A stretch of 64,000 bases of DNA from a bacterium (GTDB taxonomy: Bacteria; Patescibacteriota; Minisyncoccia; Phycocordibacterales; JBBTRF01), in the NCBI GenBank assembly GCA_037130265.1, contig JBAXTI010000002.1:26870-90869 (forward strand), in the 5' to 3' direction. The notes beneath the pieces were generated by a model. The model did no database searches. It was not told the DNA's origin and saw only the letters and a program-made list of their open reading frames with translations. Both the position numbers and the translations under genes were made by a program. Positions 41,746 through 62,700 of the stretch are shown here, one piece after another (the stretch's first letter is position 1; each line of letters begins with the position of its first letter).

Positions 41746-42501
41746 ATGAGAACTCTGCTCCTTTCGATTCTGAGCCTTTGCGTCATCTCAGTCGCGTTTC
41801 CGCTCACTGTTTTTTCTGCAGTGATGAGTAGTGGAAGCTATCAGATCCAGCTCGACTCAGTGAATGTCGGAGGTCTCGATTCCGCAAGTGCAAGTTATGC
41901 GAGTCAAGATACGTTGGGTGAAACGGGGAGTGGTGGCTCTGCAAGTGCCTCCTACAATCTGAATGCTGGGTATCAGCAGATGGAACCTTCCAGCATCTCA
42001 ATCACTAGTCCGTCGGGTGCTACGATGGGGGCCGTGAGTGGATTTTCCGGTGGGACAAGTAATGGTTCCACTACATGGACAGTCATCACGGATAATTCTG
42101 CCGGATATTCGCTTTCAGTGAGGGCGTCGAGTGCTCCGGCGATGCTGGGTCAATTGAACGGCAGTTTTATTGCGAATTATGTGCCAGCCACTTCTGATCC
42201 AGATTATACTTTCGGTGTTGGTTCCGCGAGTTCGGTTTTCGCGTATACACCAGAAGGGAATCATGTGGTGCAGCGATACAAAGATAATGGCGCCGCGTGC
42301 AATGTGGGGAGCGGAACGACGGCGGATGCTTGTTGGGATGGCTTCTCGACATCAAACGTGCAAGTGTCGGGTAGTGCCAGTGCAAACATGCCGTCAGGCA
42401 CAGATACGACACTAAAATATCGTGTCGGTATCGGCGCTTCAAAATTCCAAGACTCCGGTACCTATGAGGCGACTATCATCGTGACAGCAACGACGTTATA
42501 A
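41746..42501 (+). CDS. secreted WxL-domain-like surface protein (paralog B)
   Basis: A signal peptide is present. It carries 'TWTVITDNSAGYSLSVRASS' and C-terminal 'SGTYEATIIVTATTL'. TATAAT at 41731-41736 lies 9 nt upstream of the ATG. Confidence 0.5.
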   Translation: MRTLLLSILSLCVISVAFPLTVFSAVMSSGSYQIQLDSVNVGGLDSASASYASQDTLGETGSGGSASASYNLNAGYQQMEPSSISITSPSGATMGAVSGFSGGTSNGSTTWTVITDNSAGYSLSVRASSAPAMLGQLNGSFIANYVPATSDPDYTFGVGSASSVFAYTPEGNHVVQRYKDNGAACNVGSGTTADACWDGFSTSNVQVSGSASANMPSGTDTTLKYRVGIGASKFQDSGTYEATIIVTATTL

Positions 42502-42508
42502 TACCAGC

Positions 42509-44033: not shown

Positions 44034-47000
44034 ATGAAGCGTGTTTTTCACACAATTTCTTCGAGCGTAAAAAAAGCCTTTCTGGTCTTTTTCCTACTCA
44101 ACTTTGTTTTCTCTCCAGTCTTCAACGATATCCTTCTCAGCTCGAATCTCGGCGCTCCTTTGGCGGCGAGTGTTGCAGAGGCAGCTTTCAATCAGCAGAT
44201 CAACTACCAGGGCAAGCTCACCGACACATCCAACGTGGCTGTGTCAAATGGTTCGTACAACATCGAATTCAAGTTGTACACCTCGCTCACCGGCGGCACT
44301 GCGATCTGGACCGAGACTTGGTGTAAGGGAACTTCGTGTTCCGGTACTGGCACTGACAGCCGTGTCACTGTTTCAAACGGCTTGTTCAGTACGATGCTCG
44401 GCAGCACGACGGCTTTGACTGGTGTAGATTTCAATCAGCCATTGTATCTCGGTGTAAATATCGGTGGATCGGCAAGTACCCCAACTTGGGATGGTGAAAT
44501 GACCCCGCGAAAAATTCTCGGTGCAGTCCCGGCTGCATTCGAAGCGAAGCGACTCAACGGTTTGAACGACACACAGTTCTTGCGAACCGATACCACCAAT
44601 GCAACCTCGACCGCATCGACGTTCATCACTCTCACGCAGTCTGGTGCTGGAAATATTTTGAATCTCGTCGGACAAGGTTCCGCGAGTGTCTTCACCGCAC
44701 TCTCAAGCGGCAACGTCGGCATCGGCACCACCTCCCCTGGCCAGAAGCTTTCAGTCGCCGGAGATATTTTGGGAAACAACATTATCGGTAGTTATTTTAC
44801 GGCGACAACTTCAACTGCCACTTCGACTTTTAAAGGCTTGAGCGCAACTGCTATTGCTGCCAACAAATACATTACCTCCGACGGTACATTCCAATTCACC
44901 TCACCATACGCGGGGACACTCAATGTCACTACTCAACAGATTGGTCAAAACGCAATACTCAGCGCGACATCGCAGACGGGTAAGATTTTCAGCTTCGTCT
45001 CCAACGATACTTTGGCAACCATTAGTACTCAACCCGGTGTGCCGCTCGTGTTGAATACTGCGGGCAGTGAGAGGATTCGAATCGGTACCGCTGGTCTTGT
45101 CGGTATCGGAACTACAACCCCATGGAGGACCCTTTCCGTCAACGGCTCATCAGACCTCGGCACCAACGCTCTTGCTGGATACTTCACCGCCACCTCATCA
45201 ACCGCCTCCGTCTTCCCATACGCCTCCACCACCGCACTCACGGTATCTGGTACCAATGGTCTCCAGCTCGCATCAGCATTGAACGGTCCTCTTCAGGCAA
45301 ATGGGGGACTTGTCTCTGCCACCACCTCAGTCGGCGTTTTGTACGGTGGCACCGGCCTCACCTCTGCGCCTTCATACGGTCAGCTTCTCATGGGCAATGC
45401 CTCAAATGGATACACTTTGTCTGCCACCTCTTCTCTCGGCCTTCTCGGTTCATCGACGGTCTCGTCACTCACCTCAAGCTATGTGCCAAAGTGGGGAGGT
45501 TCAGCGTTTTCAAATAGCAATCTGTATGATGATGGGACAAATATCGGTATTGGAACCACGACCGGACTGTCGAAACTTACCGTAAACGGCATCGCACGGT
45601 TTAACAGCAATCAGGATCCAGGCGATTATTTCTACACCAATGGGATTTCAAGTGATGGTCGTATTGAATTCCGTTCTGCTGATAATGGCAACGGCGGAAA
45701 TCAGCGAATATTTATGTCTTCTGGGTACAGTACTGGTTGTGTCGGATTTGGAAATAGTGCCGATAGCGCTTCCAATAACTCTTTGAGTTGTGGAGGTAGT
45801 ACGGGCAACTCCATCGTCGCGACTCCAGGTGCACTTTCGATGGTTTCGGTGAATATTGGAGGTATTCCTGGTGTTGGAACAACTAAGGGTTTAAACATCG
45901 CTACTCCATATAGTGCAAGTGGCATCTCAACTAGCTCAAATAGTATGGTCGACATTAGTACTTTTTCAGTCATTGCAAACGCCGCAACAGGTCAACGTCC
46001 GGGTATTCATTTTACAGCGCTTCAGTACGCTTTTGGTGTCGGTGATACGTACGCAGGTGCCGGTGATGGTTACAGTACTCGGGCAATGACGATCGCAAGT
46101 AGTACTGAGATTGGTATCGGTACCAGTACTCCATACGCAAAGCTCTCACTTCTCGGCACTTCTGCGACAATGTCGACCTTTGCGCTTGTGCCAAAGGCTT
46201 CTCAGACCGCGAATATTTTGGATATTTACAACACCGCCTCGACTCCTGTCCTTACCTCGGTGATTACTGCCGCAGGCAAGTGGGGTATCGGCACTACTTC
46301 TCCAGGACAGATGTTGTCTGTCGGCGGAGATATCTTGGGTAATGTCCACATCGGTACATACTTCACTGCAACCTCCACTGCCGTGGCTTCTACCTTCCCA
46401 TACGCCTCAACCACTGCACTCTCAGTCTCTGGAGCTTCATACTTCACTGGCCTTTCAACCTTCGCCAACCTCCTCGCAACCGGCTCCTCAACTCTCCAAA
46501 ACCTCACTTTCATCAACGCCACTGGTACCAACGCGACGACAACGAACTTCTTCGCGACCACCGCTTCATCGACAAATCTCTTTGCTTCAAATCTTGCGGT
46601 GGGAGGAAACGTGCTGACAACAAGTGGGGGAAATGTCGGCATCGGGACGGCGAGTCCAAATGCTAAATTACACGTATCTGCTCCTTTAGATGATTTAGCT
46701 CCTCCCGCTCTCGGCACAATTAGTGCAAACACATCGGCATATTTCACAAATCAAAATCCACTCTACGGTTTGATGGTTGGAAGTTTGACAGGTGGCCCTA
46801 CTTATTTGCAAGTACAAAGAACAGATAGTGCCACAGCGTATAGTTTATTGTTGAATCCAAACGCAGGCAACGTCGGCATCGGCACCACTTCTCCAGCCAC
46901 CACTTTGTCTGTTGCCGGCTCTGGATACTTCACTACTGGTATTGGTGCGGGTGTACTCAATACCACCACAGGTACTATCAAGGCAAGCGTGAGCTATGAC

Positions 47001-50000
47001 ACGTCAGATTCTACTGGTCTGTACAAGATAAATGGCTCAACGATGTTGTCTGCTTCGACCACTAACGCCAACTATTTCTTCGGTACGAGCCCGGCAACGC
47101 TTCAAACAACCTTCTCAGGCACAAACAACTTTGGCCTCGGCTTGAACGACCTCAACGCCAATACCACAGGCTCTGGAAACGTCGCGATGGGTCGAGACGC
47201 GATGTTGGCAAATACTACGGGCGCCACAAACGTGGCGATCGGTTATTTGGCGTTCCGCAATGCAACCACTTCAGGTTCTGATAACGTGGCGATCGGTAAC
47301 TTGGCGCTTGCGGGGACGGCGAGCGTTGCAAACACGGGCAGTAACAACGTTGCCATTGGTCCATCAGCTCTGTTTGCTAACACATCGGGTGCTAGTAATG
47401 TCGCTATTGGTCCGAGTGCGCTCGCCTCAAACACCACCGGACAATTCAATATCGGTATTGGAAATCAGGCCATGACATCAAACGCGGCAGGACAGAACAA
47501 CACGGTCCTCGGTGTCAGCTCGATGAAGTATACGAAAACGGGTAACTACAACGTTGCCATCGGTACTTCGGCGAACCAGTACAACATGTCAGCTACCTCT
47601 ACGACTATCGTTGGAGAAGAGGCTGCGCAGGGTGTGAATAATGTTTCTTACTTCCAAAATGTAACTGCTTTGGGGTACCGTTCGTTGTATGCCATTACAA
47701 CAGCAGATGACACCACGGCTGTCGGTTATGGTTCTGGTGGGTCAGTAACGAGTGGAGTACAAAACACCTTTGTGGGTTCAAACTCAGGTGGAGGTGTTAC
47801 GACGGGTTCAGGCAACACACTCATTGGATACAACACAACCGCGACCGGAGCTACAATCTCAAATGCTATCGCTATCGGTTCGGGAGCGTCGGTAGGTTGT
47901 TCGAACTGTGCGGTGTTGGGCGGTACGAGTGGATCCGCAGTGATTGTCGGTGTGGGCACTTCTACTCCATATGCAAAGTTGAGTATTCAAAACGGTGTTG
48001 CCGCTACTACTACTATGGCACTTGTTCCTGCTGCTTTACAAACTGCCAACATCCTCGACATCTACAACACCGCCTCGACTCCTGTCCTTACCTCGGTGAT
48101 TACTTCCGCAGGCAAGTGGGGTATCGGCACCACTTCTCCAGGACAGATGTTGTCTGTCGGCGGCGACATCTTGGGTAACGTCCATATCGGTACATACTTC
48201 ACCGCGACCTCAACTACCGTCGCCTCAACCTTCCCATACGCTTCTACTACAGCACTCTCAGTCTCTGGAGCTTCATACTTCACCGGCCTTGCCACCCTTG
48301 GTAACGCTTCTACCACCCAGATCGGCTCGACCGGTTCTGCTTACTTCGTGACAAGTGGAACGGGAAGTGTGGGTATCGGCACCACCTCTCCCGCTACCAC
48401 ACTCTCTGTCGTTGGTAGCATTTACAATACAGGCGGTATCGGAGTAGGAAAGCTAAATACTACAGCCAACACCATTGACCTCGGTGTGGGTGCCACAGGT
48501 GCTACGTCAGGACTATACAAAATCAACGGTACCACTGTCGTCTCCGCTTCCTCGACCCTCAGTAACTTCTTCTTTGGAACGCTTCCTCCAACACTCAGTA
48601 CAACCATGACAGGTTCTAACAACAACGGTATCGGTGCTGGTGCATTAAACTCTCTCACCACAGGTCTTGAGAACAATGCTATCGGAGTAAACGCTGCTGC
48701 AAACCTCACAACTGGACAGTACAACATCGCTATTGGGCGAGATGCGATGCTCGCTAATACCGTCGGTAATAGAAACATTGCTATTGGCTATTTGGCAGAC
48801 CGAAACGCTACATCTTCATCTGTAGATAACATTATGATTGGTCAGAGTGCGGGTGCAGGTGTTGCGGCGAGTGGTCGAATCAGCACCTCTATTGGAAACA
48901 TCGGTATTGGTAACAGTTCCCTAAAACTTGTAACGTCTGGTACATATAATACGGCGGTTGGGTATGGCACTGCTTCAAACCTAGCAGATGGTTCACAGAA
49001 TATGTTCTTCGGAGCCTTTTCGGGAGCAGCCATGACTTCGGGAGGAGGAAACGCTGCGATTGGGTACAATGCAATGGGACTCACAACGTCGGGTTCAAAC
49101 AACCTAGCAGTCGGCACGAATTCTCTAATGGGAAACATCACAGGTATACGAAACGTATGTGTCGGTACGGGCTGTTCACAGTATAACCAATCAGCAACTT
49201 CCACTGTTGCCATTGGATATGCGGCGGCACAGGGTTCAAGTAACTACAGCGCACAAGGTATCGTAGCAATAGGAGATGCGGCACTCAGCTCGGTAACAAC
49301 AGCTTCGGACTACAATACCGCTATCGGGTATCAAGCTGGATACAGCAACGCAAACGGTACAGGAAATACATACATTGGCGCAAGTGCTGGTGTCAACAAT
49401 ACGTCAGGTTCAAATAACATCATGATTGGGCGAGCTACAGACTTTGCTGGCAACATTTCCTACTACATGAACATTGGAAACTTCCTATACGCTACCTCAA
49501 CAACGGCAGGAAGTGCCTTCGGGTCGTTCGGCATCGCTACCACAACACCTTCTGCTCGGTTCTCAATTAAGGGACTAGGTACTGGTACTGGTCGTTTACT
49601 CGCTTTCTCCGACTCAAGCAACGTGGAGCGACTGACGATGTTTGATAACGGTAATGTCGGCATCGGCACCACTTCTCCATGGCGAACACTTTCGGTGAAC
49701 GGCTCATCTGACCTCGGTACCAACGCTCTCGCTGGATACTTCACCGCAACCTCGACCACCGCTTCCACCCTCCCATACGCTTCCACCACCGCACTCTCCG
49801 TCTCCGGAGCTTCATACTTCACCGGCCTTTCAACCTTTGCCAACCTCCTCGCAACCGGCTCCACCACCCTCCAAAACTTCACCTTCGTAAATGCAACTGG
49901 TACCAGTGCTACCACCACCAACTTCTTTGCAACCACGGCGTCTTCAACTAACCTCTTTGCAAGTACCGCCAATCTCAACGCAGCAACCATCGGTACTACT

Positions 50001-53000
50001 CTCGGAGTCACCGGTGCTACTACTCTCTCCTCAACTCTCAATGTCACCGGCCTCACCACCCTTGGCAACGCTTCTACTACCCAGATCGGCTCAACCGGTT
50101 CTGCGTACTTTGCGACGAGTGGGGGGAATGTGGGCATCGGGACGACATCGCCTGGTTCGAAACTTGATGTAAACGGAGATATCAATGCGAACACTTATTA
50201 TCGTTATAAAGGCGGGATATTTGTCAACGCATCATCAACTAAACAGAATATGTTCGTCGGTATGGGTGCTGGAAATCTCACCACAACTGGAATTGGTAAT
50301 ACTGCGATTGGATATAATTCTGGCGCTGCACTAACAACTCAAAATGCCAGCATTAATCCTTTTCCAGTTCAAGCTGACACATTCATTGGAACGAACGCTG
50401 GCGCAGCGAATACTTCAGGAGATTCTAACGTTTTTGTAGGTTACAATGCTGGCGCAGTAAATACTTGTGGTCGCTCGACAGTTGCAATCGGTGCCTATGC
50501 TGGGGCGAGCTATGTGAGTGAGCCTGGATGTCCAGATATTGAAAATGGACTAAACGTCTTTATCGGTTCAGCTGCTGGACAATATATTACTGCTGGTTTG
50601 CATAACGTCTTTATTGGTGAAGATACTGGGCTACTCATGCAAAGTGGCTCGAACAACACCTTCCTTGGTTCGCATGCGGGCACAGGAATACTTACTGGCA
50701 ATGAAAGCACATACATCGGCGGTAGTGCTGGAGATTTCGCTTCAACTACTGGTGATGGAAACATCGGTATCGGAGTAAGATCTGCTCTATATCTTGATGG
50801 TTCCGCACAGTATAACGTTTTTCTTGGGAATGGCGCTGGCGCAGGTACTGAGGCTAATCCTAACGTAGCTTCGTTTAACACAGCTGTTGGTACTGGGGCA
50901 GGTTATCTGTTGACTACAGCCACTGGCGCAACTTTCTTGGGCTATCAAGCTGGATTGCAGGTCACCACTGGATACAGTAACACTCTTGTCGGTTATCAAG
51001 CCGGGTGGAATCTAGTGAGCGGTGTAAATAACACCTTCTTGGGTTATCAGGCTGGTTATAATACAACTGGTTCAGCAAATATTTTCCTTGGTGATCAGGC
51101 GGGAGCTTCTAATACTACTGGCTCAAACCAGTTTGTGGCCGGTGGAGATCATGCAAACTATCTCATTAGCGATGTATATTTCGGTCGAGGTATAAACAGC
51201 GCGACTCCTAGCACGTACACTATCCACGGAACTGGTGGCCTCGGTACAAATATTACTGGTGGTGATATCAATATTGCTGGTGGAGCAGGAACAGGATCTG
51301 GAGTGGGTGGAAATATCATTTTCCAGACTTCGAATACTGGGAGCTCAGGAACTACTTTGAATACGCTCTCCGAAAAAATAAGAATTACTAATTCTGGGAA
51401 AATAGGCATCGGTACTACAACCCCATGGAGGACGCTCTCCGTGAACGGATCATCCGATCTCGGTACCAACGCTCTCGCTGGATACTTCACCGCAACCTCG
51501 ACCACCGCTTCCACCCTCCCATACGCTTCCACCACCGCACTCTCCGTCTCCGGAGCTTCATACTTCACCGGCCTTTCAACCTTTGCCAACCTCCTCGCCA
51601 CCGGATCTTCCACCCTCCAGAACTTCACCTTCGTGAATGCTACTGGTACCTCAGCTACCACCACCAACTTCTTTGCTACTACTGCATCTTCTACTAACCT
51701 CTTCGCAAGTACCGCTACATTCAACGCCGCTTCAATTGGTACCACTCTTTCAGTCACTGGCCTTACCACTCTCGGCAACGCTTCTACTACTCAGATTGGT
51801 TCAACTGGTTCTGCATACTTTGCGACGAGTGGGGGGAATGTGGGCATCGGGACGACGACGCCAGATGGAAATTTAACTGTATATAATCCGTCAGGAGCAA
51901 GCACAGTAGATATTATGGGAAGTAGTGCTGGGTCATTGCTTAGGATTTCCCAGGGAAGCACTTTGGCTCAAGGAACAATTGATTTGGGAGTACACTCACC
52001 ACAGGCTGGTTTATTCCGTAGTGGCGGCACAAGTGGATTTGTTGCGTACGATACTGGGACTGGTGACACTATATTGAATAATGTTTTCGGTGGATCTAGT
52101 TTGTTGAGATTAAATTACGGTGGGACTACGGCTTTGGCAATAAATAGTAGTGGCAACGTCGGCATCGGCACCACCTCTCCTGGCCAGAAGCTTTCAGTGG
52201 CGGGAGATATCTTGGGTAATGTCCACATCGGTACATACTTCACTGCAACCTCCACTGCCGTGGCTTCTACCTTCCCATACGCCTCAACCACTGCACTCTC
52301 AGTCTCTGGAGCTTCATACTTCACCGGCCTTTCAACCTTTGCCAACCTCCTCGCAACCGGCTCCACCACCCTCCAAAACTTCACCTTCGTAAATGCAACA
52401 GGAACTAATGCAACGACAACGAATTTCTTTGCAACTACGGCGAGTTCAACTAATCTTTTTGCTTCAACTGCCACCCTCAACACTGCTTCAATTGCAAATA
52501 CTCTCAATGTCACCGGCCTCACCACCCTTGGCAACGCTTCTACTACCCAGATCGGCTCAACCGGTTCTGCGTACTTTGCGACGAGTGGGGGGAATGTGGG
52601 CATCGGGACGACGAGCCCGACGACGGCTTTGTTGGCAATCCAAAATAGTTCTGGACATTCATTCGATATATTTAGCACCGCAAATGGTTCTGCTGGGACA
52701 GCGATGACGATCAATGTAAATACTAGTTCAGCAAAAGCTCTGCAGATCAATTCAAATACGACAGACACCCCAATTACTGTGACTCACGTAGATCCTGGAA
52801 ACGTCCGAAATGCGGATATTTTCGGTATCAATATAAGTGAGACCCTAAACTCGATTGGCAATATCGGTGCCAATGATTACAAGTACGGTGGCGGAAACTT
52901 TGAGGTAACACAAAATGCTTCACCAGCTACTGCAAAAGATGTGTTCGGTGTTCGAGGAGTTTCAACAGCAAACAATGTTAATTTTACTGCGTACGGCGGA

Positions 53001-56000
53001 TATTTTAGTGGTAACTCAACGAACGGTACAGCTTACGGTGTCTATTCAGCTGCCGGAAAGAACTATTTTAACGGCAACCTCGGCATCGGCACCACCACTC
53101 CAGGCCAGAAGCTTTCGGTAGCGGGGGATATTTTGGGTAACAATATTATCGGCTCATACTTCACGGCGACTTCGACAACCGCTTCCTCGACTCTCAATTC
53201 CGCCCTTGGCATCGGCACGACAACCCCAAGTGCACGTTTGGCGATCACTGGATACGGCACCGCTGACACTGGCCGAGCTTTTGCGATCGCCAATAGTTCA
53301 AATGCTGAAAAGCTTTACGTGACAGACAGTGGCAAGACACGATTCAGTAATTTTGTGGCAATTAACTCTGATCCAAGCACAAACAACGGCACCGGCGCGA
53401 CTCTGTACGTAAAGCAGACTACGGGCTCGACAGGGTTCCCGTTCCAGGTTGTGAACACTTCAGATACAAACCTGTTCAGTGTAGATACATCTGGAAATAC
53501 AAACACAGCTGGCTCCGTCACCGCTTCTGCAAATGGATTCATTACTTCGTCCAGTGGAGGCGCTGCCTTCTTGCGCTTGACGCATACCTCCGGACGCTCA
53601 TTTGAAGTTCGCAGTAATAGTTCTTCGTATTTCTCTATCTACGACGCGACAGCTTCTGCTGATCGGTTGGTTGTGGCTGGCATTGGCACTGTTGGTATCG
53701 GCACCACCACCCCCTACGCTCAACTTTCTATTGTCAGCGGTGCCGCAGCCACCACCACTCTTGCCCTCAAGCCAGCCGCATCTCAAACCGCCAATATCCT
53801 GGATATCTACAGCAATGACGCAACTCCTGTCTTGAAATCGGTCATCACAGCGGCGGGCAAGTTCGGCCTCGGCACCACCTCCCCTTGGCGCACCCTCTCC
53901 GTGAACGGCTCATCAGACCTCGGTACCAACGCTCTTGCAGGGTACTTCACAGCTACTTCATCAACTGCCTCAGTCTTCACATATGCATCGACGACCGCAA
54001 TCTCTGCATCGGGTTCGGCATACTTTGCTACGAGTGGGGGAAATGTGGGTATCGGCACCACCTCTCCTTGGCGAACTCTCTCGGTCAACGGCTCATCCGA
54101 CCTCGGTACCAACGCTCTCGCTGGTTCCTTTACCGCAACTTCTACGACTGCCACTTCCACCTTTGCTGGCTTTATTGACGTCAATGGTACCGGCTCCAAT
54201 GCCACTTCCACCTTTGCTTCAAATCTTTGGGTGAAGGGTGCGATGAAGATCGGTACAAACTCGATCTATCTGAATGGTGCAGCGACTTCCACCTTCGGTG
54301 CAGGTATCAATCTCACCACTGGCTGCTTCTCGGTGAACGGTACTTGTGTTGGTGGTTCGAGTGCGGCAGTGGCAATTGGTAGTGCTATTACTGGCGGTAC
54401 CGCTGGCTCAGCGCTTTTCGTGGACGTTTCTGGAAATATTGCTCAGGACAATACGAATTTCTTCTGGGACAACTCGAGCAAATATTTAGGAATCCAAACT
54501 GCCACCCCAGGGTATCCTCTTGATGTAAATGGCACCGCTCATGCGACGACCTTGAACGCGGGCACCATTACCGACGGTGCAGGCTTTACTGTTACCGGAG
54601 GCACTATTGGTGGGGGTGTATGGAACGGCACAGCAATCGGTACAACGTACGGTGGCACTGGTATTAACTCTTCAGGCTCAACTGGTGTGGCTCAGATATC
54701 TTCAGGAACCTGGAGCGTCGGAGCTATCGATATTAGTTCCTCAAGCAATGTCACGGGCACATTGTCAGTGGCAAATGGCGGTACTGGCGCGACCTCATAC
54801 ACCGCTGGGTCAATTACTTTCTCAGATGGTACGAATCTTACGCAGGATAATGCAAACCTGTTCTGGAACAACTCGAGCAAATATTTAGGAATCCAAACTG
54901 CCACCCCAGGGTATCCTCTTGATGTAAATGGCACCGCTCATGCGACGACCTTGAACGCGGGCACCATTACCGACGGTGCAGGCTTTACTGTTACCGGAGG
55001 CACTATTGGTGGGGGTGTATGGAACGGCACAGCAATCGGTACAACGTACGGTGGCACTGGTATTAACTCTTCAGGCTCAACTGGTGTGGCTCAGATATCT
55101 TCAGGAACCTGGAGCGTCGGAGCTATCGATATTAGTTCCTCAAGCAATGTCACGGGCACATTGTCAGTGGCAAATGGCGGTACTGGCGCGACCTCATACA
55201 CCGCTGGGTCAATTACTTTCTCAGATGGTACGAATCTTACGCAGGATAATGCAAACCTGTTCTGGAATAATTCCACAAAGGCTTTGGGAATTGGCGATAC
55301 TGCTCCTGGTGCGAAGCTTTCGGTAGTGGGTAATGCATCGATTGGTTATGCGACTGGTCAGACCGCGCCGACAAACGGATTGTTAGTGGCTGGTAGTGTC
55401 GGCATCGCCACCACTTCTCCAAGCCTCGCAACGTTTACTGTTGAGGGAGGTTCAGGTGCCACAACAGCTTTCTTCACAGGGAGCGTCAATAGCTATCAGG
55501 AGGTGCTTAATCAAAATCGAAGCAATGGTACGAGTGCTTCGACTGACTTTGTTGCAGTAAACAATATCGGTAATGCAAGTTCTTACTACGTGAATTTGGG
55601 TATTAATAGTTCTGGTAATGCCGACCCTTCTTACACCCTCTTCTCCGCAAATGACGCCTACCTATACTCGAGTGATTCAGCCTTAAACCTCGGTACTGCA
55701 AGCACTACCAACACGAACGCAGTCATCAAATTCTTCACTGCTGGCACGGTCGCTGGCAAGGAGCGTGCCCGGTTCAGTTCGACGGGTAACTTCGGCATCG
55801 GCACGACCTCCCCTGGCCAGCTCCTTTCAGTCGCAGGTGATATTTTGGGCAACAATATTATTGGCAGCTACTTTACGGCGACGAGTACGACAGCGACATC
55901 GACCCTCGCTGGGGGATTTACCATGGGTTCAAGTGGTCTTAATGCGTATGCAAACGGCAAGGTTGGCATCGGCACAACCACCCCACAGTGGCTGCTCAAC

Positions 56001-58466
56001 TTGCAGTCATCGACCGCTCCACAGCTTGCTTTGTCGGCTGGTGCAGGTATAGCACAGTGGGCATTTAGAAATGCCGGTGGCGACCTCTACTTTTCTACCA
56101 CCACCACCGCCGGTACAGCGACCACGAGCACCGCCGCTTTCTCGGTCTCTGGTTCCGGCTTCGGTACCACCACTCTTCGCGGGTTGACCATCTCTGGCCA
56201 GGCAACCTCAACTTCGAATGTCGGCTTCAATCTCACAGCGGGTTGCTTCGCGGTGAACGGCACTTGTGTTGGAAGCAATAATGGTACTTCTCAGTGGACC
56301 ACTACGGGTTCAGATATTTACTACACCACCGGCAAAGTGGGTGTAGGCACCACAACTCCATGGGCTAACTTCTCAGTGGGTACTCATAACCTGGCGATCA
56401 CCACACCGTCTTTCGTGATTGCTTCTTCGTCGGCGGCCCTCGCGACGTCAACTCAGTTTATTGTCACAAATGGCAAGGTCGGAATAGGTACTTCGACTCC
56501 AAACTGGATGCTCCAGGTGGCGAACACCCGTCCGTCCTTTGCGCTTTCTGACACCAATGCCGGTGCCAACTTGAAACACTGGACACTTTCGTCGCAGGGC
56601 GGTAATTTCTACTTTGCAACATCTTCCGATGCGTTGGCAACATCGACCACCCCGGCAGGCATGTTTAATAGCAGTGGTTGGTTTGGTATCGGTACCACCT
56701 CACCATGGGCACCGCTGTCGGTTGCCGGTATTAGTGCGGCTACTTCTTTCTACGCCACCGCGACTACTTCGACTTCTACTATGGCCGGCAGCTTGAATGT
56801 GGGTAACGGTGCGCTCTTCTACGATTATGCCGGTGCGTACACTAGTATCGACAACTTGCAGATCGGTGCGATGGCTTTCGATACCAACGCCGGTGCTGTG
56901 AGCTGGGCAGATATGCCAATCACTTCAGCGGCTGCCGCAAGTACTACGGAAAGCTACACCGCACAGTTGGGAGGTAATGCCGTGCTCACTATCTACGGTG
57001 AAGCTGATGGCGCCGGCGGCGTGAACACCCTCCGTGTTGGTATCGGTACCACCTCTCCGGCTGGTGCTGCGGCTGGTCCGCTCACCATGGCTTCGGGGGC
57101 GTATGTTACTACCGGTGGTACTTGGACCAACGCTTCGAGCCGAGCTGGGAAGGAGAATTTTACAGCACTCGATTCACTTGATGTGTTGCAGAAGATCAAC
57201 GCCCTTGATGTGACCCGATGGAATTACAAGAGTGAGTCAGCAGGTACTACTCATATTGGTCCAGTGGCAGAGGACTTCTACGCTGCGTTTGGTACTGGTA
57301 GTGGTCCAGGTTCTATCTCGACCATCGACCCTTCCGGTGTCGCGCTTATTGGTATACAGGCGCTGTCTCGAGGCTTTGATATCTCTCATGCAGGTACAAC
57401 CACCCCTTCTATTCAGTCACTCTTTGTGGGCACCACCACTCCGGCTCTTTCGATCGACGCTGCTGGCAATATCGGTATCGGTACTTCCTCTCCGGCATAC
57501 AAGCTTCATGTGTTAGGTGATATCGCGGCAACTTCTTTTGTAAATATCAGTACACGTGAGGCCAAGAAGGATATTAGCTATCTCTCAGCAGCGGAAAACG
57601 AAAGCGCACTGAACAAAATAAAGGGCCTCAATGTTGCGACGTATCGATACAATATTGAGTCGGAAAGTAACCCGCTTCGACTGGGTCTCATCGCTGAGGA
57701 GGCACCTGCCGAGATCCTCGCGGCTTCAGGAAAGGGTGTGGATATTTACAAGCTTTCAACCTTTATCCTCGCCGGAGTGAAGGCACAGCAGGTGAAAATC
57801 GAGTCCCTCGAATCTCGAGTCGCGCACCTCGAGGCGGTGCAGGGCGGTGGTTCAACATCGAATGGTGCCGCCGGCATTGCCGAATATCTCAGCTCGATGG
57901 GCGCCCAGCTCTCCGCTTCGGTGTCACGATTCCGCAATGTCCTCGCTGAGTCCCTCACCGTCGGTACTGCCGAGAAGCCATCGGGCATCACTCTCTATGA
58001 CGAAGTCACCAAGCAGCCATACTGCTTGAAGATTTCTGGTGGTGCACCGGTGAGTGTGCCTGGCGAATGTGCTGCAGTATCTGCAGGCGGTACTTCAGGT
58101 ACCACTAATACCACGACAGGCGGGACCACTCCTGGTGGTTCAGGGACTACGACTACTCCAGTGGTAGGTGATACCGTTGCACCGGTCATTACAATCAATG
58201 GCAACAACCCGGCAAATATCGACAAGGGGGCTTCGTATAATGACCTCGGCGTAACCGTGACCGATAATATCGATAATAACCTCGGTATTACCACCACAGG
58301 CGATCAGATAGACACCACCGTTGCAGGCACTTATACTGTTCATTACAGTGCGACAGACGCAGCAGGGAATACCACAAATGCAACTCGCACGGTGATTGTG
58401 TCAGAAGTCTCTGTACCGAGTGCGGCTCCTGATGTCTCTGTGTCTACGAGCACAACTACTCCATAA
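44034..58466 (+). CDS. giant (4810 aa) repeat-rich secreted/anchored surface fibre protein with two tandem peptidase-S74-like intramolecular chaperone segments and a C-terminal DUF5011-like Ig domain
   Basis: It is a single uninterrupted ORF with an N-terminal hydrophobic segment. About 4300 aa of Gly/Thr/Ser/Ala/Asn-rich degenerate repeats follow, built on 'GNVGIGTTSPGxKLSVAGDILGN' and 'WRTLSVNGSSDLGTNALAGYFTATS' modules. A 'LSVANGGTGATS' motif is present. Residues ~4366-4445 (NASSRAGKENF...IGIQAL) and ~4505-4600 (NISTREAKKDI...ESRVAHLE) each carry the S-x-R-x-x-K Ser-Lys dyad pattern and downstream blocks typical of tail-spike chaperone domains. The C-terminus 'VITINGNNPANIDKGASYNDLGVTVTDNID..GTYTVHYSATDAAGNTTNATRTVIV' is DUF5011-like. 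Confidence 0.85.
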   Translation: MKRVFHTISSSVKKAFLVFFLLNFVFSPVFNDILLSSNLGAPLAASVAEAAFNQQINYQGKLTDTSNVAVSNGSYNIEFKLYTSLTGGTAIWTETWCKGTSCSGTGTDSRVTVSNGLFSTMLGSTTALTGVDFNQPLYLGVNIGGSASTPTWDGEMTPRKILGAVPAAFEAKRLNGLNDTQFLRTDTTNATSTASTFITLTQSGAGNILNLVGQGSASVFTALSSGNVGIGTTSPGQKLSVAGDILGNNIIGSYFTATTSTATSTFKGLSATAIAANKYITSDGTFQFTSPYAGTLNVTTQQIGQNAILSATSQTGKIFSFVSNDTLATISTQPGVPLVLNTAGSERIRIGTAGLVGIGTTTPWRTLSVNGSSDLGTNALAGYFTATSSTASVFPYASTTALTVSGTNGLQLASALNGPLQANGGLVSATTSVGVLYGGTGLTSAPSYGQLLMGNASNGYTLSATSSLGLLGSSTVSSLTSSYVPKWGGSAFSNSNLYDDGTNIGIGTTTGLSKLTVNGIARFNSNQDPGDYFYTNGISSDGRIEFRSADNGNGGNQRIFMSSGYSTGCVGFGNSADSASNNSLSCGGSTGNSIVATPGALSMVSVNIGGIPGVGTTKGLNIATPYSASGISTSSNSMVDISTFSVIANAATGQRPGIHFTALQYAFGVGDTYAGAGDGYSTRAMTIASSTEIGIGTSTPYAKLSLLGTSATMSTFALVPKASQTANILDIYNTASTPVLTSVITAAGKWGIGTTSPGQMLSVGGDILGNVHIGTYFTATSTAVASTFPYASTTALSVSGASYFTGLSTFANLLATGSSTLQNLTFINATGTNATTTNFFATTASSTNLFASNLAVGGNVLTTSGGNVGIGTASPNAKLHVSAPLDDLAPPALGTISANTSAYFTNQNPLYGLMVGSLTGGPTYLQVQRTDSATAYSLLLNPNAGNVGIGTTSPATTLSVAGSGYFTTGIGAGVLNTTTGTIKASVSYDTSDSTGLYKINGSTMLSASTTNANYFFGTSPATLQTTFSGTNNFGLGLNDLNANTTGSGNVAMGRDAMLANTTGATNVAIGYLAFRNATTSGSDNVAIGNLALAGTASVANTGSNNVAIGPSALFANTSGASNVAIGPSALASNTTGQFNIGIGNQAMTSNAAGQNNTVLGVSSMKYTKTGNYNVAIGTSANQYNMSATSTTIVGEEAAQGVNNVSYFQNVTALGYRSLYAITTADDTTAVGYGSGGSVTSGVQNTFVGSNSGGGVTTGSGNTLIGYNTTATGATISNAIAIGSGASVGCSNCAVLGGTSGSAVIVGVGTSTPYAKLSIQNGVAATTTMALVPAALQTANILDIYNTASTPVLTSVITSAGKWGIGTTSPGQMLSVGGDILGNVHIGTYFTATSTTVASTFPYASTTALSVSGASYFTGLATLGNASTTQIGSTGSAYFVTSGTGSVGIGTTSPATTLSVVGSIYNTGGIGVGKLNTTANTIDLGVGATGATSGLYKINGTTVVSASSTLSNFFFGTLPPTLSTTMTGSNNNGIGAGALNSLTTGLENNAIGVNAAANLTTGQYNIAIGRDAMLANTVGNRNIAIGYLADRNATSSSVDNIMIGQSAGAGVAASGRISTSIGNIGIGNSSLKLVTSGTYNTAVGYGTASNLADGSQNMFFGAFSGAAMTSGGGNAAIGYNAMGLTTSGSNNLAVGTNSLMGNITGIRNVCVGTGCSQYNQSATSTVAIGYAAAQGSSNYSAQGIVAIGDAALSSVTTASDYNTAIGYQAGYSNANGTGNTYIGASAGVNNTSGSNNIMIGRATDFAGNISYYMNIGNFLYATSTTAGSAFGSFGIATTTPSARFSIKGLGTGTGRLLAFSDSSNVERLTMFDNGNVGIGTTSPWRTLSVNGSSDLGTNALAGYFTATSTTASTLPYASTTALSVSGASYFTGLSTFANLLATGSTTLQNFTFVNATGTSATTTNFFATTASSTNLFASTANLNAATIGTTLGVTGATTLSSTLNVTGLTTLGNASTTQIGSTGSAYFATSGGNVGIGTTSPGSKLDVNGDINANTYYRYKGGIFVNASSTKQNMFVGMGAGNLTTTGIGNTAIGYNSGAALTTQNASINPFPVQADTFIGTNAGAANTSGDSNVFVGYNAGAVNTCGRSTVAIGAYAGASYVSEPGCPDIENGLNVFIGSAAGQYITAGLHNVFIGEDTGLLMQSGSNNTFLGSHAGTGILTGNESTYIGGSAGDFASTTGDGNIGIGVRSALYLDGSAQYNVFLGNGAGAGTEANPNVASFNTAVGTGAGYLLTTATGATFLGYQAGLQVTTGYSNTLVGYQAGWNLVSGVNNTFLGYQAGYNTTGSANIFLGDQAGASNTTGSNQFVAGGDHANYLISDVYFGRGINSATPSTYTIHGTGGLGTNITGGDINIAGGAGTGSGVGGNIIFQTSNTGSSGTTLNTLSEKIRITNSGKIGIGTTTPWRTLSVNGSSDLGTNALAGYFTATSTTASTLPYASTTALSVSGASYFTGLSTFANLLATGSSTLQNFTFVNATGTSATTTNFFATTASSTNLFASTATFNAASIGTTLSVTGLTTLGNASTTQIGSTGSAYFATSGGNVGIGTTTPDGNLTVYNPSGASTVDIMGSSAGSLLRISQGSTLAQGTIDLGVHSPQAGLFRSGGTSGFVAYDTGTGDTILNNVFGGSSLLRLNYGGTTALAINSSGNVGIGTTSPGQKLSVAGDILGNVHIGTYFTATSTAVASTFPYASTTALSVSGASYFTGLSTFANLLATGSTTLQNFTFVNATGTNATTTNFFATTASSTNLFASTATLNTASIANTLNVTGLTTLGNASTTQIGSTGSAYFATSGGNVGIGTTSPTTALLAIQNSSGHSFDIFSTANGSAGTAMTINVNTSSAKALQINSNTTDTPITVTHVDPGNVRNADIFGINISETLNSIGNIGANDYKYGGGNFEVTQNASPATAKDVFGVRGVSTANNVNFTAYGGYFSGNSTNGTAYGVYSAAGKNYFNGNLGIGTTTPGQKLSVAGDILGNNIIGSYFTATSTTASSTLNSALGIGTTTPSARLAITGYGTADTGRAFAIANSSNAEKLYVTDSGKTRFSNFVAINSDPSTNNGTGATLYVKQTTGSTGFPFQVVNTSDTNLFSVDTSGNTNTAGSVTASANGFITSSSGGAAFLRLTHTSGRSFEVRSNSSSYFSIYDATASADRLVVAGIGTVGIGTTTPYAQLSIVSGAAATTTLALKPAASQTANILDIYSNDATPVLKSVITAAGKFGLGTTSPWRTLSVNGSSDLGTNALAGYFTATSSTASVFTYASTTAISASGSAYFATSGGNVGIGTTSPWRTLSVNGSSDLGTNALAGSFTATSTTATSTFAGFIDVNGTGSNATSTFASNLWVKGAMKIGTNSIYLNGAATSTFGAGINLTTGCFSVNGTCVGGSSAAVAIGSAITGGTAGSALFVDVSGNIAQDNTNFFWDNSSKYLGIQTATPGYPLDVNGTAHATTLNAGTITDGAGFTVTGGTIGGGVWNGTAIGTTYGGTGINSSGSTGVAQISSGTWSVGAIDISSSSNVTGTLSVANGGTGATSYTAGSITFSDGTNLTQDNANLFWNNSSKYLGIQTATPGYPLDVNGTAHATTLNAGTITDGAGFTVTGGTIGGGVWNGTAIGTTYGGTGINSSGSTGVAQISSGTWSVGAIDISSSSNVTGTLSVANGGTGATSYTAGSITFSDGTNLTQDNANLFWNNSTKALGIGDTAPGAKLSVVGNASIGYATGQTAPTNGLLVAGSVGIATTSPSLATFTVEGGSGATTAFFTGSVNSYQEVLNQNRSNGTSASTDFVAVNNIGNASSYYVNLGINSSGNADPSYTLFSANDAYLYSSDSALNLGTASTTNTNAVIKFFTAGTVAGKERARFSSTGNFGIGTTSPGQLLSVAGDILGNNIIGSYFTATSTTATSTLAGGFTMGSSGLNAYANGKVGIGTTTPQWLLNLQSSTAPQLALSAGAGIAQWAFRNAGGDLYFSTTTTAGTATTSTAAFSVSGSGFGTTTLRGLTISGQATSTSNVGFNLTAGCFAVNGTCVGSNNGTSQWTTTGSDIYYTTGKVGVGTTTPWANFSVGTHNLAITTPSFVIASSSAALATSTQFIVTNGKVGIGTSTPNWMLQVANTRPSFALSDTNAGANLKHWTLSSQGGNFYFATSSDALATSTTPAGMFNSSGWFGIGTTSPWAPLSVAGISAATSFYATATTSTSTMAGSLNVGNGALFYDYAGAYTSIDNLQIGAMAFDTNAGAVSWADMPITSAAAASTTESYTAQLGGNAVLTIYGEADGAGGVNTLRVGIGTTSPAGAAAGPLTMASGAYVTTGGTWTNASSRAGKENFTALDSLDVLQKINALDVTRWNYKSESAGTTHIGPVAEDFYAAFGTGSGPGSISTIDPSGVALIGIQALSRGFDISHAGTTTPSIQSLFVGTTTPALSIDAAGNIGIGTSSPAYKLHVLGDIAATSFVNISTREAKKDISYLSAAENESALNKIKGLNVATYRYNIESESNPLRLGLIAEEAPAEILAASGKGVDIYKLSTFILAGVKAQQVKIESLESRVAHLEAVQGGGSTSNGAAGIAEYLSSMGAQLSASVSRFRNVLAESLTVGTAEKPSGITLYDEVTKQPYCLKISGGAPVSVPGECAAVSAGGTSGTTNTTTGGTTPGGSGTTTTPVVGDTVAPVITINGNNPANIDKGASYNDLGVTVTDNIDNNLGITTTGDQIDTTVAGTYTVHYSATDAAGNTTNATRTVIVSEVSVPSAAPDVSVSTSTTTP
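54468..55267 (+). repeat. perfect tandem duplication of a ~399-bp (133-codon) unit inside the giant ORF
   Basis: The two ORF-track entries 54577-54888 and 54976-55326 have identical translations offset by exactly 399 nt. Direct comparison shows sequence identity from about 54468 to about 55267. Confidence 0.8.
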
Positions 58467-58471: not shown

Positions 58472-60565
58472 ATGCACACTTACTTCTCTAAAATTTGTTT
58501 CGGCGTCAGTCTCACGGTTCTTTTATTGTGCAGTGTGGTTCCTGTGTATGGAGCTGCAAAAATCAATACACCAGTGACTGGTCAAATGAATACAGGGCTT
58601 GTTGGGTACTGGACATTCGATGCTCCTGATACGAGTTTTGTATCGAATACTGTTACTGACAAGTCGGGAAGTGGTAATACCGGAACAATGATCAGTATGG
58701 CTACAAGCACCTCACGAGTCCTCGGCAAGCTTGGACAGGCACTCTCTTTTGATGGGGTGGCGAAATATATCTCATTGCCAAATCTCGATAGGCAGGCCCC
58801 TTTGTCCATCGCTTTTTGGACAAAAAGAGGGAGAACCGGGCAGGCGAGTGACAACATTATTGGGGGGAGTTGCGGATCGTGGGGGATTGGATTCAATGCA
58901 AATAATACACTTTTTTTGACAAACACGTGCGTGAATGTCGCAAACTCAACGGGTACTATTGCGGATACTACAAAATGGCATCATGTAGTCGTCACCTACG
59001 ATGGTTCGAATGCTCGTTTTTATTTCGACGGAGCTCTGGATTCTTCTCCGGTGTATGCAAGCGGTACGTTCAATAGTAGTGCGGTGGCGTATACGATTGG
59101 CAGAGTAAATGTTACTGCCTATTACAAGGGTTCGCTCGATGATGTGCGTGTGTACAGTAAAGTTTTGAGTCAGAGAGAGGTGACCACTTTGTATACACTT
59201 GGCCAAGAAACCATCCAGAAGTCACAGAATAATAAGGTGACTAGCGGCCTGACGCATCTGTGGACATTTGATGGTGCTGATCTCAATACAATTACAAAAA
59301 CCGTGTATGATCGAGCTGGGACCACCAACGGTACTATTGTGGCTTTGGCGACAAGTACTCAGTTGGTAAACGGCGCTCTTGGTCAGGCTTTTAATTTTAA
59401 TGGAACTAGTCAGTATGCTTCTTTAGCCGATATTAATACAGCCCTTAATCCACCGGCAAGTATTGCTCTATGGATAAAGCGCGGACAAACCAGCGCTGCC
59501 GCTGATGAGGGTATAATCGGGTACTCCGGTTCTGGATGCACCGGTCAAAATGTGTGGGGGGTCGGTATTGCTTCTGGAGCGAATGCGAATAAACCATTTC
59601 TTACTGAGGTTGGTATTGGCGCGCAGTATCCAACAGGCACTATTACCGATCGTAATTGGCATCATTTGGTACTAACGCTAGATGGTACGAATATTCGTTT
59701 CTATATTGATGGAGTTTTGGACTCCACGGTGGCAAATGCTACTACCTTTACCTGCGTTGCTTCTTCTGCGTTTGCCATTGGAACAGTTAATACTAGTGGT
59801 TGGTACAAGGGAGCGGTCGATGACATCCGTATGTATAATAGAGTTTTGTCTGCGAATGAGGTTAAAAGTCTCTATTCGATTGGTAAATCTACCATCCAGA
59901 AATCACAGAATACAAAGGTAAATACGGGGCTTGTTGGACTATGGTCTTTTGATGGGGCAGACATGACTTCAACTGTAGCCACCGACCGAAGTGGCAATGG
60001 TTATAATGGCACACTCACGAACATGACCCTCAAGAATGTAGTCACCCCAGGAAAGATTGGCCAGGCTCTCCAGTTTCAAGGTGGTTCGGCGTATATACTC
60101 ACCGCTAACGATATTATGAGTAATCCGACCGGTCTAACGATCGCATTTTGGATGAAGTCGGCCACTATCCCTGCATCAACCCAACGCGTGTTCTCCGTTG
60201 AAGGAGCTTACGTGATCACTCTGACCACGGCCGGCAAACTGCAGGGCATTGTGGATGGTGCAGAAGCCGAGTACGCGCAGACTTCTGTTATCAGCGATAA
60301 CAAGTGGCACCACGTCGCGTTTACGCATAATGGCGCAATTGCGGGTGGAAGGATCTATGTCGATGGGGTGGCGAGTAGTACGTTTACGGGTTCCTCGTAT
60401 AGTGGATTCTATAATATTAACTCTCTGACACGCCCTGTCGCCATCGGTGGAAATGTTTCCCCGAACCCCATCTCGCCATTTATTGGCTCGCTCGACGATG
60501 TTCGGCTGTATAATAGAGTCATCACCAATGCAGAGATCACTCGTCTCTATAGCATAGGAAAATAA
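58472..60565 (+). CDS. secreted protein with three tandem LamG-like (concanavalin A-like lectin/glucanase, Laminin_G_3-type) domains
   Basis: A signal peptide is present. Three repeats each begin 'GL(V/T)G(Y/L)W(T/S)FDGAD' and end 'DDVR(V/M)Y(S/N)(K/R)VLS..E(V/I)..LY'. It lies 5 nt after the giant ORF stop. Confidence 0.8.
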   Translation: MHTYFSKICFGVSLTVLLLCSVVPVYGAAKINTPVTGQMNTGLVGYWTFDAPDTSFVSNTVTDKSGSGNTGTMISMATSTSRVLGKLGQALSFDGVAKYISLPNLDRQAPLSIAFWTKRGRTGQASDNIIGGSCGSWGIGFNANNTLFLTNTCVNVANSTGTIADTTKWHHVVVTYDGSNARFYFDGALDSSPVYASGTFNSSAVAYTIGRVNVTAYYKGSLDDVRVYSKVLSQREVTTLYTLGQETIQKSQNNKVTSGLTHLWTFDGADLNTITKTVYDRAGTTNGTIVALATSTQLVNGALGQAFNFNGTSQYASLADINTALNPPASIALWIKRGQTSAAADEGIIGYSGSGCTGQNVWGVGIASGANANKPFLTEVGIGAQYPTGTITDRNWHHLVLTLDGTNIRFYIDGVLDSTVANATTFTCVASSAFAIGTVNTSGWYKGAVDDIRMYNRVLSANEVKSLYSIGKSTIQKSQNTKVNTGLVGLWSFDGADMTSTVATDRSGNGYNGTLTNMTLKNVVTPGKIGQALQFQGGSAYILTANDIMSNPTGLTIAFWMKSATIPASTQRVFSVEGAYVITLTTAGKLQGIVDGAEAEYAQTSVISDNKWHHVAFTHNGAIAGGRIYVDGVASSTFTGSSYSGFYNINSLTRPVAIGGNVSPNPISPFIGSLDDVRLYNRVITNAEITRLYSIGK

Positions 60566-60611: not shown

Positions 60612-62687
60612 ATGATCAGAGAGACTTACAAAAATTCCTCACCTCTGGCAGTTTTATTCCTGCTCGGGACCATTTTCTTGCCGATTTTTGCCCACGCATC
60701 AGCGAAGGTGAATGTCTTGGCTCGACCGAAAAACACCTCAGGCCTCATAGGGTATTGGTCTCTGAATGGTGCGGATATGAACGCTACAACTGCATTCGAT
60801 CGTAGTGGAAATGGATACGACGGGACTTTTCAAGCCATGGGCCTCAGGAATGTTATATCGGGAAAAGTCGGACAAGCTCTTTCTTTCGATGGTTCAACTG
60901 CGTATATTTCACTTCCGAACCTTGATCGTCAAGCACCTCTTACGTGGTCATTTTGGGTAAAGCGAGCAAGATTGGGCCAGGCGAACGAGGATTTTTTTGG
61001 CGGTGACAGTAGTGGTGCGTGGGGTTTTGGATTCAATGCTGACAATACGATGTTTCTTACAAACGTCGGAATTAACAGCGTGAGTTCGACTGGTGCCATT
61101 GCAGATACAGACTGGCACCATATTGTGGTGACGTATGATGGATCAGACGTCAGTTTTTATTTTGATGGAGTTTTGGACTCGGCGCTGAGCTATTCCAGCG
61201 GCACGTATAATAGTAGCGGTGCCGCATATGCAATCGGCAGGGTGAATGTCAGTGCATATTTTGAGGGTAGGCTTGATGAAGTGCGCATGTATGATCGTGT
61301 ATTGGCTGCCCCCGAGGTGAGGACTTTGTATCAGGACTCGGCAGCGAAAATTTTAGGTCCATCGTCTGGGAACTCTAATGTGTCTAGTGGTCTTATTGGT
61401 TTTTGGTCTTTCAATAAGGAGGATGTGGTAAATGGAGCGCTTGTCGATCGAAGTATTTCGGGAAATACAGCATATCTTCAAAATATTGCTACTTCAACGG
61501 TTTACAGCGCTGGTCGTATTGGGCGAGGCCTTACTTTTGATGGTTCTGATGACTATGCGGTGACAGGCGCTACGACCTGGGGTATTACGAACACTCTTTC
61601 GATGTCTGCGTGGATTAAGACAACGGCTAATGCTGTTTCGATCGCTGAGCTTGGGCGCGTCACTGTCTTGGACGAGGCTTTGCTGTACATTCATAATAAC
61701 AGTGCGGCAATCTTCTTTTCTCAAGGGGCTGGTGTATATACTGGAGTATATGGTTCTAGGCAGGTCAATGACGGTCAGTGGCATCACGTGGTCGCTGTTT
61801 CGACTGGGCCAAGTATTGCCTGTGCAAATGTAAGGATATATGTGGACGGTGTTCGTGATACTGAGAATTGTATTACTGAAAATGTGTCGAGTCTAAGTGA
61901 CGCATCGCCACGCAGATTCTTTATTGGTTGGCGAGCTTGGGGTGGTGGTACCTCTGAGATATACAATGGTAGTGTCGATGACGTGCGTCTGTATGGTCGT
62001 GCGATAAGTGCTAGTGAAGCTCTGCAGCTGTACCGCATGGGAATTACTACAAAAGCCAATGTTTCGCAGAATACTAAGGGTCGTAACGGTCTCGTGGGTC
62101 TATGGTCTTTTGACGGGGCCGATATGGTGGCCGGGACAACAGCGTATGATAGGAGTGGTAATGGGTATGATGGCATATTGAGTGGTCTGTCTGCTCCGAA
62201 GATTGGCGTGGGAAAAATTGGTCAAGCGCTTCGGCTGCATGGGACGAGCGGTTATGTAAGTGTCTCCAATCTCGATATGAACACCTTAAGTACTTTTGGT
62301 TGGATTAACACGACTGTAGTGGGCAATCAGGTTATCGTGGCGACTCTGGCAAATGGTGGGTGGTCATTCTTCCTAGGGGCAGGTAATAACCTCACATTTC
62401 TCAAGAGAGGTATCGGTGGGGTGACTTCAAGTGCTACTATCGGGACTAATGGCTGGCATTATGTCGGGGTTACCTATGATGGTGCGACGGCAAAATTTTA
62501 CATCGACGGTGTTTTGGATAGTTCAAATGCCTATAGTCAGACATTCAACAATGGCTCCGTTGGGTACGGTTTGGGTGGTATTGAGATCGGTGGATACACC
62601 GTCACTGGCCGACTTGATGATGTTCGCGTCTATAATAGGGTCCTCACGGCGAGCGAAATTAGAACGATGTATAACCAAGCTAAATAA
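60612..62687 (+). CDS. secreted triple LamG-like domain protein, paralog of 58472-60565
   Basis: It has the same signal peptide plus three-repeat organisation (GLIGYWSLNGADM..., DDVRLYGRAISASE..., DDVRVYNRVLTASEIRTMY). Confidence 0.8.
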   Translation: MIRETYKNSSPLAVLFLLGTIFLPIFAHASAKVNVLARPKNTSGLIGYWSLNGADMNATTAFDRSGNGYDGTFQAMGLRNVISGKVGQALSFDGSTAYISLPNLDRQAPLTWSFWVKRARLGQANEDFFGGDSSGAWGFGFNADNTMFLTNVGINSVSSTGAIADTDWHHIVVTYDGSDVSFYFDGVLDSALSYSSGTYNSSGAAYAIGRVNVSAYFEGRLDEVRMYDRVLAAPEVRTLYQDSAAKILGPSSGNSNVSSGLIGFWSFNKEDVVNGALVDRSISGNTAYLQNIATSTVYSAGRIGRGLTFDGSDDYAVTGATTWGITNTLSMSAWIKTTANAVSIAELGRVTVLDEALLYIHNNSAAIFFSQGAGVYTGVYGSRQVNDGQWHHVVAVSTGPSIACANVRIYVDGVRDTENCITENVSSLSDASPRRFFIGWRAWGGGTSEIYNGSVDDVRLYGRAISASEALQLYRMGITTKANVSQNTKGRNGLVGLWSFDGADMVAGTTAYDRSGNGYDGILSGLSAPKIGVGKIGQALRLHGTSGYVSVSNLDMNTLSTFGWINTTVVGNQVIVATLANGGWSFFLGAGNNLTFLKRGIGGVTSSATIGTNGWHYVGVTYDGATAKFYIDGVLDSSNAYSQTFNNGSVGYGLGGIEIGGYTVTGRLDDVRVYNRVLTASEIRTMYNQAK

Positions 62688-62700
62688 TTCTGCTATAATT

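Follow-up and report, generated by a model that had tools for sequence, protein, structure and literature searches.

Two S74-type chaperone-protease domains in series near the distal end of a giant MAT-like fibre protein from a Patescibacteriota genome

What would a bacterium do with two phage-type chaperone-protease domains placed one after the other inside a single secreted protein? The question is raised by a 64,000-nucleotide (nt) stretch of a Patescibacteriota genome (assembly GCA_037130265.1, contig JBAXTI010000002.1, positions 26,870 to 90,869 of the forward strand), hereafter the window, in which a single open reading frame (ORF) on the plus strand (44034..58466) encodes a protein of 4810 amino acids (aa). 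The product is identical to MEI6346149.1 (P0121 in our set of relatives), which NCBI annotates as ‘MAG: immunoglobulin-like domain-containing protein’, MAG denoting a metagenome-assembled genome. An earlier note on this DNA had pointed to two tandem segments resembling the S74-type intramolecular chaperone (ICA) domain, and had suggested that cleavage at either one would release different C-terminal fragments. Here we show that both segments are genuine ICA domains with their catalytic residues in place and that the layout recurs in relatives, and we weigh the proposal that the pair acts as a folding relay followed by two self-cuts.

The Pfam family PF13884 (Peptidase_S74; PROSITE PS51688) matched the C-terminal 688-aa fragment of the protein with an E-value of 6.5e-18 over two stretches. 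When the stretches were scanned alone, copy 1 (aa 4368-4448; 57135..57377, plus strand) scored 38.3 bits (E 1.7e-9) and copy 2 (aa 4506-4604; 57549..57845, plus strand) scored 34.8 bits (E 2.1e-8), each above the gathering cut-off of 22 bits. Chance resemblance is excluded for both matches, confirming that both are genuine ICA domains. The first position of the profile falls on S4368 (57135-57137) in copy 1 and on S4506 (57549-57551) in copy 2. The peptides quoted in the earlier note lie in the frame of the ORF, including those of the first segment, whose start at about 57134 has to be shifted, this being one base before the S4368 codon; the true frame runs from 57135. The predicted S-x-R-x-x-K spacing of the Ser-Lys dyad is seen in both copies, as SSRAGK in copy 1 (nt 57135-57152) and STREAK in copy 2 (nt 57549-57566), the lysines being K4373 (57150-57152) and K4511 (57564-57566), respectively.

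To compare these residues across relatives we aligned 28 copy-1-type sequences (alignment A1) and 32 copy-2-type sequences (alignment A2). S4368, K4373, W4396 and Y4398 are invariant in A1, as are S4506, T4507, K4511, Y4537 and Y4539 in A2. A phmmer search of the PDB with the C-terminal 688 aa returned only MAT fibre stalks and immunoglobulin (Ig) domains and no ICA structure, and the A1 and A2 profiles were therefore needed to reach solved ICA domains; searched against PDB sequences, they reached MyRF and T5 pb1. In the profile alignments S4368/K4373 and S4506/K4511 fall on S587/K592 of MyRF (the construct crystallised for 7dc3 has Ala in place of S587), while W4396/Y4398 and Y4537/Y4539 fall on Y615/Y617. 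In MyRF, the S587A and K592A substitutions abolish cleavage, and Y615 and Y617 line the ‘cutting hole’ (PMC8326128). Among the S74 domains found in 247 relatives, Ser is present in 190/190 and Lys in 189/190, the lone Lys exception being an indel shift. The earlier note would have given up its idea had profile alignment placed other residues at the catalytic positions of both copies; since the profile alignments have Ser and Lys there in both, and these are invariant in relatives, that objection does not apply. Judged by these residues, both copies look catalytically competent. Because Ser-to-Ala forms of MyRF and of the Bdellovibrio fibre Bd3182 remain soluble and can be crystallised or purified, the invariance of Ser and Lys across both subfamilies is best read as selection for proteolysis.

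Models of the two domains agree with this assignment. The AlphaFold2 (AF2) monomer of copy 1 (pLDDT 78.5) runs in the order helix-strand-strand-helix-long helix, and its top Foldseek matches in the PDB were the ICA domain of MyRF (7dc3, probability 0.99), GA-1 gp12 (3gud) and K1F endosialidase (3gw6). Solved ICA domains ranked first for the models of both copies, with MyRF as the best structural match in either case, and both models adopt the ICA fold, a beta-alpha-beta-beta-alpha core followed by a long C-terminal helix. In the AF2 models copy 1 closes with a short helix joined directly to the next stalk unit; the corresponding helix of copy 2 extends over ~34 aa.

Each copy is preceded by a stalk unit with a capping loop of the GIGT..P type. 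The unit that adjoins copy 1 upstream (aa 4334-4367; 57033..57134, plus strand) carries a GIGTTSP loop and is conserved before copy-1-type domains. Between the copies lies a short beta-helix stalk unit of 57 aa (aa 4449-4505; 57378..57548, plus strand) with the capping loop IGIGTSSPAYKL; sequence comparison matches it to the Bd3182 fibre 8ojn (E 2.3e-6), and the cassette start TTTPSI...GIGT...AATSFVNIST recurs at other loci. At the level of sequence, the units before both copies align to the stalks of Bd3182 and MyRF, and profile-profile alignment places the two ‘stalk + S74’ cassettes in register with a probability of 98.2%. The two copies share only 31% identity and fall into separate S74 subfamilies, so we rejected a recent tandem duplication; on this comparison they are divergent paralogues, each with its own stalk unit.

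The protein that carries the pair is best explained as a secreted, MAT-like fibre at the cell surface, predicted to be trimeric. Its strongest hydrophobic window lies in a predicted N-terminal signal peptide or hydrophobic anchor (aa 1-50; 44034..44183, plus strand) with a core at about aa 15-31, and a possible A-x-A signal cleavage site lies near aa 48-50. The capping-loop motif V-G-x-G/N-x-x-x-P-x-x-x-L occurs 24 times in the protein as against 0.005 times in shuffled sequences. In the phmmer search with the C-terminal 688 aa the best PDB matches were the MAT fibres Bd3182 (8ojn, E 2.3e-6) and Bd2133 (E 1.3e-5); the Bdellovibrio MAT fibre structures matched in sequence searches of the PDB include 8ojn and 8ond. 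The S74 subgroup of Bdellovibrio MAT fibres (Bd3182; 8ojn/8onb/8onc) shares with the giant protein a signal peptide, a long trimeric beta-helix with VGIGT..P...L loops and a distal S74 chaperone-protease with the S-x-x-x-x-K motif. MAT fibres have a signal peptide followed by a conserved ~130-aa beta-rich N-terminal domain; our comparison covered the first of these, and the hydrophobic signal is present. However, MAT fibres come from another phylum, are about 1000 aa long and finish with either one terminal S74 domain or another kind of adhesive tip, whereas the giant protein has 4810 aa, two S74 cassettes of different subfamilies in series and then ~210 aa more.

We also observed, upstream of the pair, a borderline match to HCBP_related, a haemolysin-type calcium-binding related domain (aa 3576-3605, ~54759-54848), with 21.8 bits over two stretches against a cut-off of 21.4.

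The ~210 aa beyond the copy-2 helix, which the earlier note had put at ~200 aa with a DUF5011 Ig domain, comprise the expected Ig domain and, before it, a helical linker and a small two-cysteine beta domain (two-Cys domain). Linker and two-Cys domain together span aa 4605-4682 (GITLYDEVTKQPYCLKISGG...GEC; 57846..58079, plus strand). Short helices precede the domain, which has the pattern GITLYD..T..PYC.KI..G......G.C and is supported by strands in the AF2 model (pLDDT ~86-90) and by conservation in a further alignment (A3), where D183, C191 and G197 are invariant and C206 nearly so. In many proteins of Patescibacteria it follows an S74 domain, which may belong to either subfamily; a Pfam scan matched it to no family and a structure search gave no convincing match. 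A Gly/Thr-rich linker leads to the Ig-like domain (PF16403, Bact_surface_Ig-like/DUF5011; aa 4719-4789; 58188..58400, plus strand; Pfam E 3.3e-16), and a short Ser/Thr/Pro tail ends the protein. The C-terminus of the giant protein shows neither a transmembrane segment nor a sortase signal.

Next, we asked how general this layout is. The relatives are overwhelmingly proteins of 2000-7900 aa from Patescibacteria genomes (Paceibacterota, Parcubacteria, Taylorbacteria, Niyogibacteria and others), and their taxonomy points to the same placement for the window. In the 198 that bear S74, a median of 225 aa follows the last S74 domain; this stretch exceeds 150 aa in 85%, and it usually consists of a two-Cys domain and then an Ig domain or a Ser/Thr/Pro-rich tail. 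The internal position stressed by the earlier note is thus real in this protein but not exceptional: it is the rule in this clade, and the ICA domain of MyRF is internal too. The tandem is likewise real but not unique, since at least 12 protein clusters besides this one have it. A copy-1-type domain followed by a copy-2-type domain is also found in P0001, P0005, P0129, P0132 and P0195, of which P0001 is ~55-62% identical to the giant protein and is followed at its locus by Laminin_G_3 genes. In 7 further clusters the first copy is of a classic SDxRLK kind, and Pfam confirmed two stretches in 4/5 of those tested. We did not count P0023, P0036, P0073, P0113, P0187 and P0219, in which a single copy-2-type domain is split by an insertion, nor P0090, in which two strong copy-2-type matches represent one split domain, accompanied by a weak third match of 16 bits.

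We also scanned genomes, one per species, with a query consisting only of copy 2 and the post-domain, so that the scan was unbiased with respect to an upstream copy. Of 80 Patescibacteria genome loci kept, 7 (~9%) have a robust second S74 domain upstream in frame. Three further loci (L042, L063 and L070) have a divergent S74-like segment there that Pfam no longer detects; it reads APSFSWLK/ASFSYLK, keeps the S-x-x-x-x-K spacing and perhaps represents a first copy that is degenerating or has become specialised. Two short contigs (L014 and L058) carry the Patescibacteria-type copy-2 cassette in MAGs labelled Gammaproteobacteria and Pseudomonadales, which probably reflects mis-binning rather than the true distribution. 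Serial internal S74 domains are not confined to Patescibacteria, given that proteins with three of them exist: P0141 (WP_166831721.1, from the planctomycete Thalassoroseus pseudoceratinae), P0133 and P0208. Here the domains are spaced ~450-480 aa apart within the N-terminal ~1100 aa, with Ser and Lys all intact, and the proteins continue for 670-3800 residues, P0133 into Peptidase_M10 and Dockerin domains; P0141 is annotated as Calx-beta.

Taken together, we favour, at a probability of roughly 55%, a model in which the two S74 domains act as a C-to-N folding relay and then cut themselves at the distal end of a giant trimeric fibre. The C-terminus would emerge last after Sec export, whereupon the long helix of copy 2 would form a trimeric coiled coil and bring three chains into register. 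The copy 2 trimer would template the 57-aa stalk unit, which would in turn bring copy 1, with its short terminal helix, into trimeric register, and copy 1 would then nucleate folding of the ~4300 aa of fibre upstream. MyRF, in which a C-terminal coiled coil drives trimerisation, is cut between P586 and S587 and requires the trimer for cutting (PMC8326128). By analogy, both sites would be cut N-terminal to the Ser, at A4367|S4368 and I4505|S4506, giving a mature fibre with A4367 as its predicted new C-terminus, and fragments of aa 4368-4505 and aa 4506-4810, the latter with the Ig domain. The order of trimerisation, the cutting at both sites and the fate of the fragments are what we infer in this scheme.

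Several observations weigh against the two-cut relay. The model confidences are only moderate (pLDDT 78.5 and 72.1) and the Foldseek E-values weak (best 0.013), the models being monomers of an obligate intertwined trimer; the modest structure-search scores can be explained by this way of modelling. The fifth residue of the copy 1 motif (SSRAGK) is Gly, and Leu is the most common residue there in the family, although the position is variable. The phage type needs an Arg in the upstream stalk (R897 in endoNF; PMC8326128). Finally, a cut at copy 1 would discard copy 2 and the Ig domain together, which would be odd given their conservation unless the fragment is functional or stays bound.

The last point leads to the main rival explanation, which we consider possible but clearly less likely, namely that only one S74 domain cuts and the other is kept as a non-cleaving trimerisation clamp. 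Either copy 2 would cut, leaving copy 1 in the mature tip, or copy 1 would cut, with copy 2 keeping the three chains of the released, Ig-bearing part together. The triple-S74 proteins P0141, P0208 and P0133 would fall apart if every site were cut; the conserved Ig and two-Cys domains after copy 2 suggest a part that is not simply thrown away; and the upstream copy at L042, L063 and L070 has become too divergent for Pfam, all of which would fit a single cut. However, this rival agrees poorly with the sequences. Cleavage requires Ser and Lys, and the two are kept without exception in each subfamily, in every tandem examined and in the triple proteins, while Ser-to-Ala MyRF and Bd3182 stay soluble; the aromatic residues that line the cutting site are invariant in both subfamilies as well.

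A further explanation, which we regard as improbable, is that the tandem is a by-product of the shuffling of tip cassettes and has no function of its own. A mobile ‘stalk + copy 2 + two-Cys + Ig’ cassette would have recombined behind an existing S74 domain instead of replacing it. The distant relationship of the two copies is consistent with such an origin, as is the start of the copy-2 cassette, which is the same whether it follows plain fibre or S74 domains of various kinds; MAT fibres have, moreover, been described as mosaic (PMC10769870). On the other hand, the junction of a copy-1-type with a copy-2-type domain is kept at 45-62% protein identity with all catalytic residues intact, first copies of two or more kinds have given rise to tandems, and the tandems' share of ~9% in an independent genome sample argues for maintenance rather than a transient accident. 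Shuffling would explain the origin of the tandem but not its function or persistence, and it is compatible with the relay and two cuts.

Lastly, we rejected as very improbable a phage or prophage origin, under which the gene would encode a tail fibre and not a cellular adhesin: copy 2 is indeed ~40% identical to ICA domains of Bacillus phage tail fibres, and NCBI calls relatives ‘tail fiber domain-containing protein’, but the 14.4-kb gene encodes an N-terminal signal peptide, its relatives are very large Patescibacteria proteins, its neighbours are the housekeeping genes for SecA, enolase, iPGM, Obg, GatB and GAPDH, no phage genes or tRNAs were seen near it in the window, and composition is even and unremarkable. 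A tblastn search of a phage collection returned single ICA domains matching copy 2 only, and no tandem.

Among the neighbouring genes, two ORFs directly 3′ of the fibre gene (58472-60565 and 60612-62687, both plus strand) encode proteins of ~690 aa with three Laminin_G_3 domains each, which are concanavalin-like lectin domains. Laminin_G_3 proteins are likewise encoded downstream of the fibre gene at the locus of the closest relative (L081), and this recurrence suggests that the fibre and lectin gene neighbourhood is conserved. Immediately 5′ of the giant gene lie five consecutive ORFs (39547-43951, plus strand; 161, 224, 329, 274 and 480 aa), for which we found no Pfam match at E<=0.001. The GAPDH ORF (62431-63774, plus strand) is listed with a GTG start that overlaps the preceding Laminin_G_3 gene by ~250 nt, and its Gp_dh_N domain begins only at aa 97; the true start therefore probably lies further downstream.

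How much of this is new? The earlier note had called the scheme undescribed for bacterial adhesins, which holds in part. Self-cleavage of S74 domains is already known from phage spikes and fibres, from MyRF and from a bacterial adhesin, since the S782A substitution in Bd3182 blocks processing and leaves an unprocessed species (PMC10769870); it follows that only the tandem, internal layout is new. We found nothing relevant on tandem, serial or internal S74 domains, or on S74 in Patescibacteria (also known as CPR, candidate phyla radiation), in the open-access literature, an absence that is weak evidence. The ICA domains of phage (K1F endosialidase 3gw6, T5 pb1 4uw8 and GA-1 gp12 3gud; PF13884/MEROPS S74) share the family, the fold, the Ser-Lys dyad and the triple beta-helix stalk upstream. 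Unlike the present case, however, they stand singly at the extreme C-terminus and are discarded once cut, whereas the giant protein is cellular and has two in series followed by conserved domains. The ICA domain of MyRF (7dc3) is internal and precedes further domains, with cleavage separating two functional parts, and its Ser/Lys and aromatic pairs align with those of both copies; yet MyRF is a eukaryotic transcription factor of the endoplasmic reticulum (ER) membrane with a single ICA domain and a C-terminal membrane anchor, which the giant protein lacks. Collectively, the tandem pair in a MAT-like giant fibre adds a new architecture to a known system, and it is not unique to this gene.

More tentatively, and with a probability that we would put well below even, S74/ICA cassettes may be programmable joints at which giant proteins secreted by bacteria cut themselves, acting as a relay of trimerisation nuclei and then dicing the chain into several trimers. 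If true, the products here would be an anchored fibre of ~4367 aa, a short piece of stalk and an unattached trimer with the Ig domain, and those of the triple-S74 proteins would include metalloprotease and dockerin fragments or Calx-beta arrays. This would amount to a bacterial extracellular polyprotein strategy analogous to the release of MyRF.

Patescibacteria live attached to other cells, and their giant surface proteins are among the leading candidates for host attachment. Our results indicate that the tips of such fibres carry phage-type chaperone-protease cassettes, often serial and almost always accompanied by extra conserved domains, which carries the S74 paradigm known from MAT fibres and phages over to a further phylum. 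They also provide a testable maturation model for a protein of ~5000 residues that is folded outside a minimal cell, and they imply that a prediction of the mature fibre tip from nothing but the gene sequence may be off by several hundred residues.

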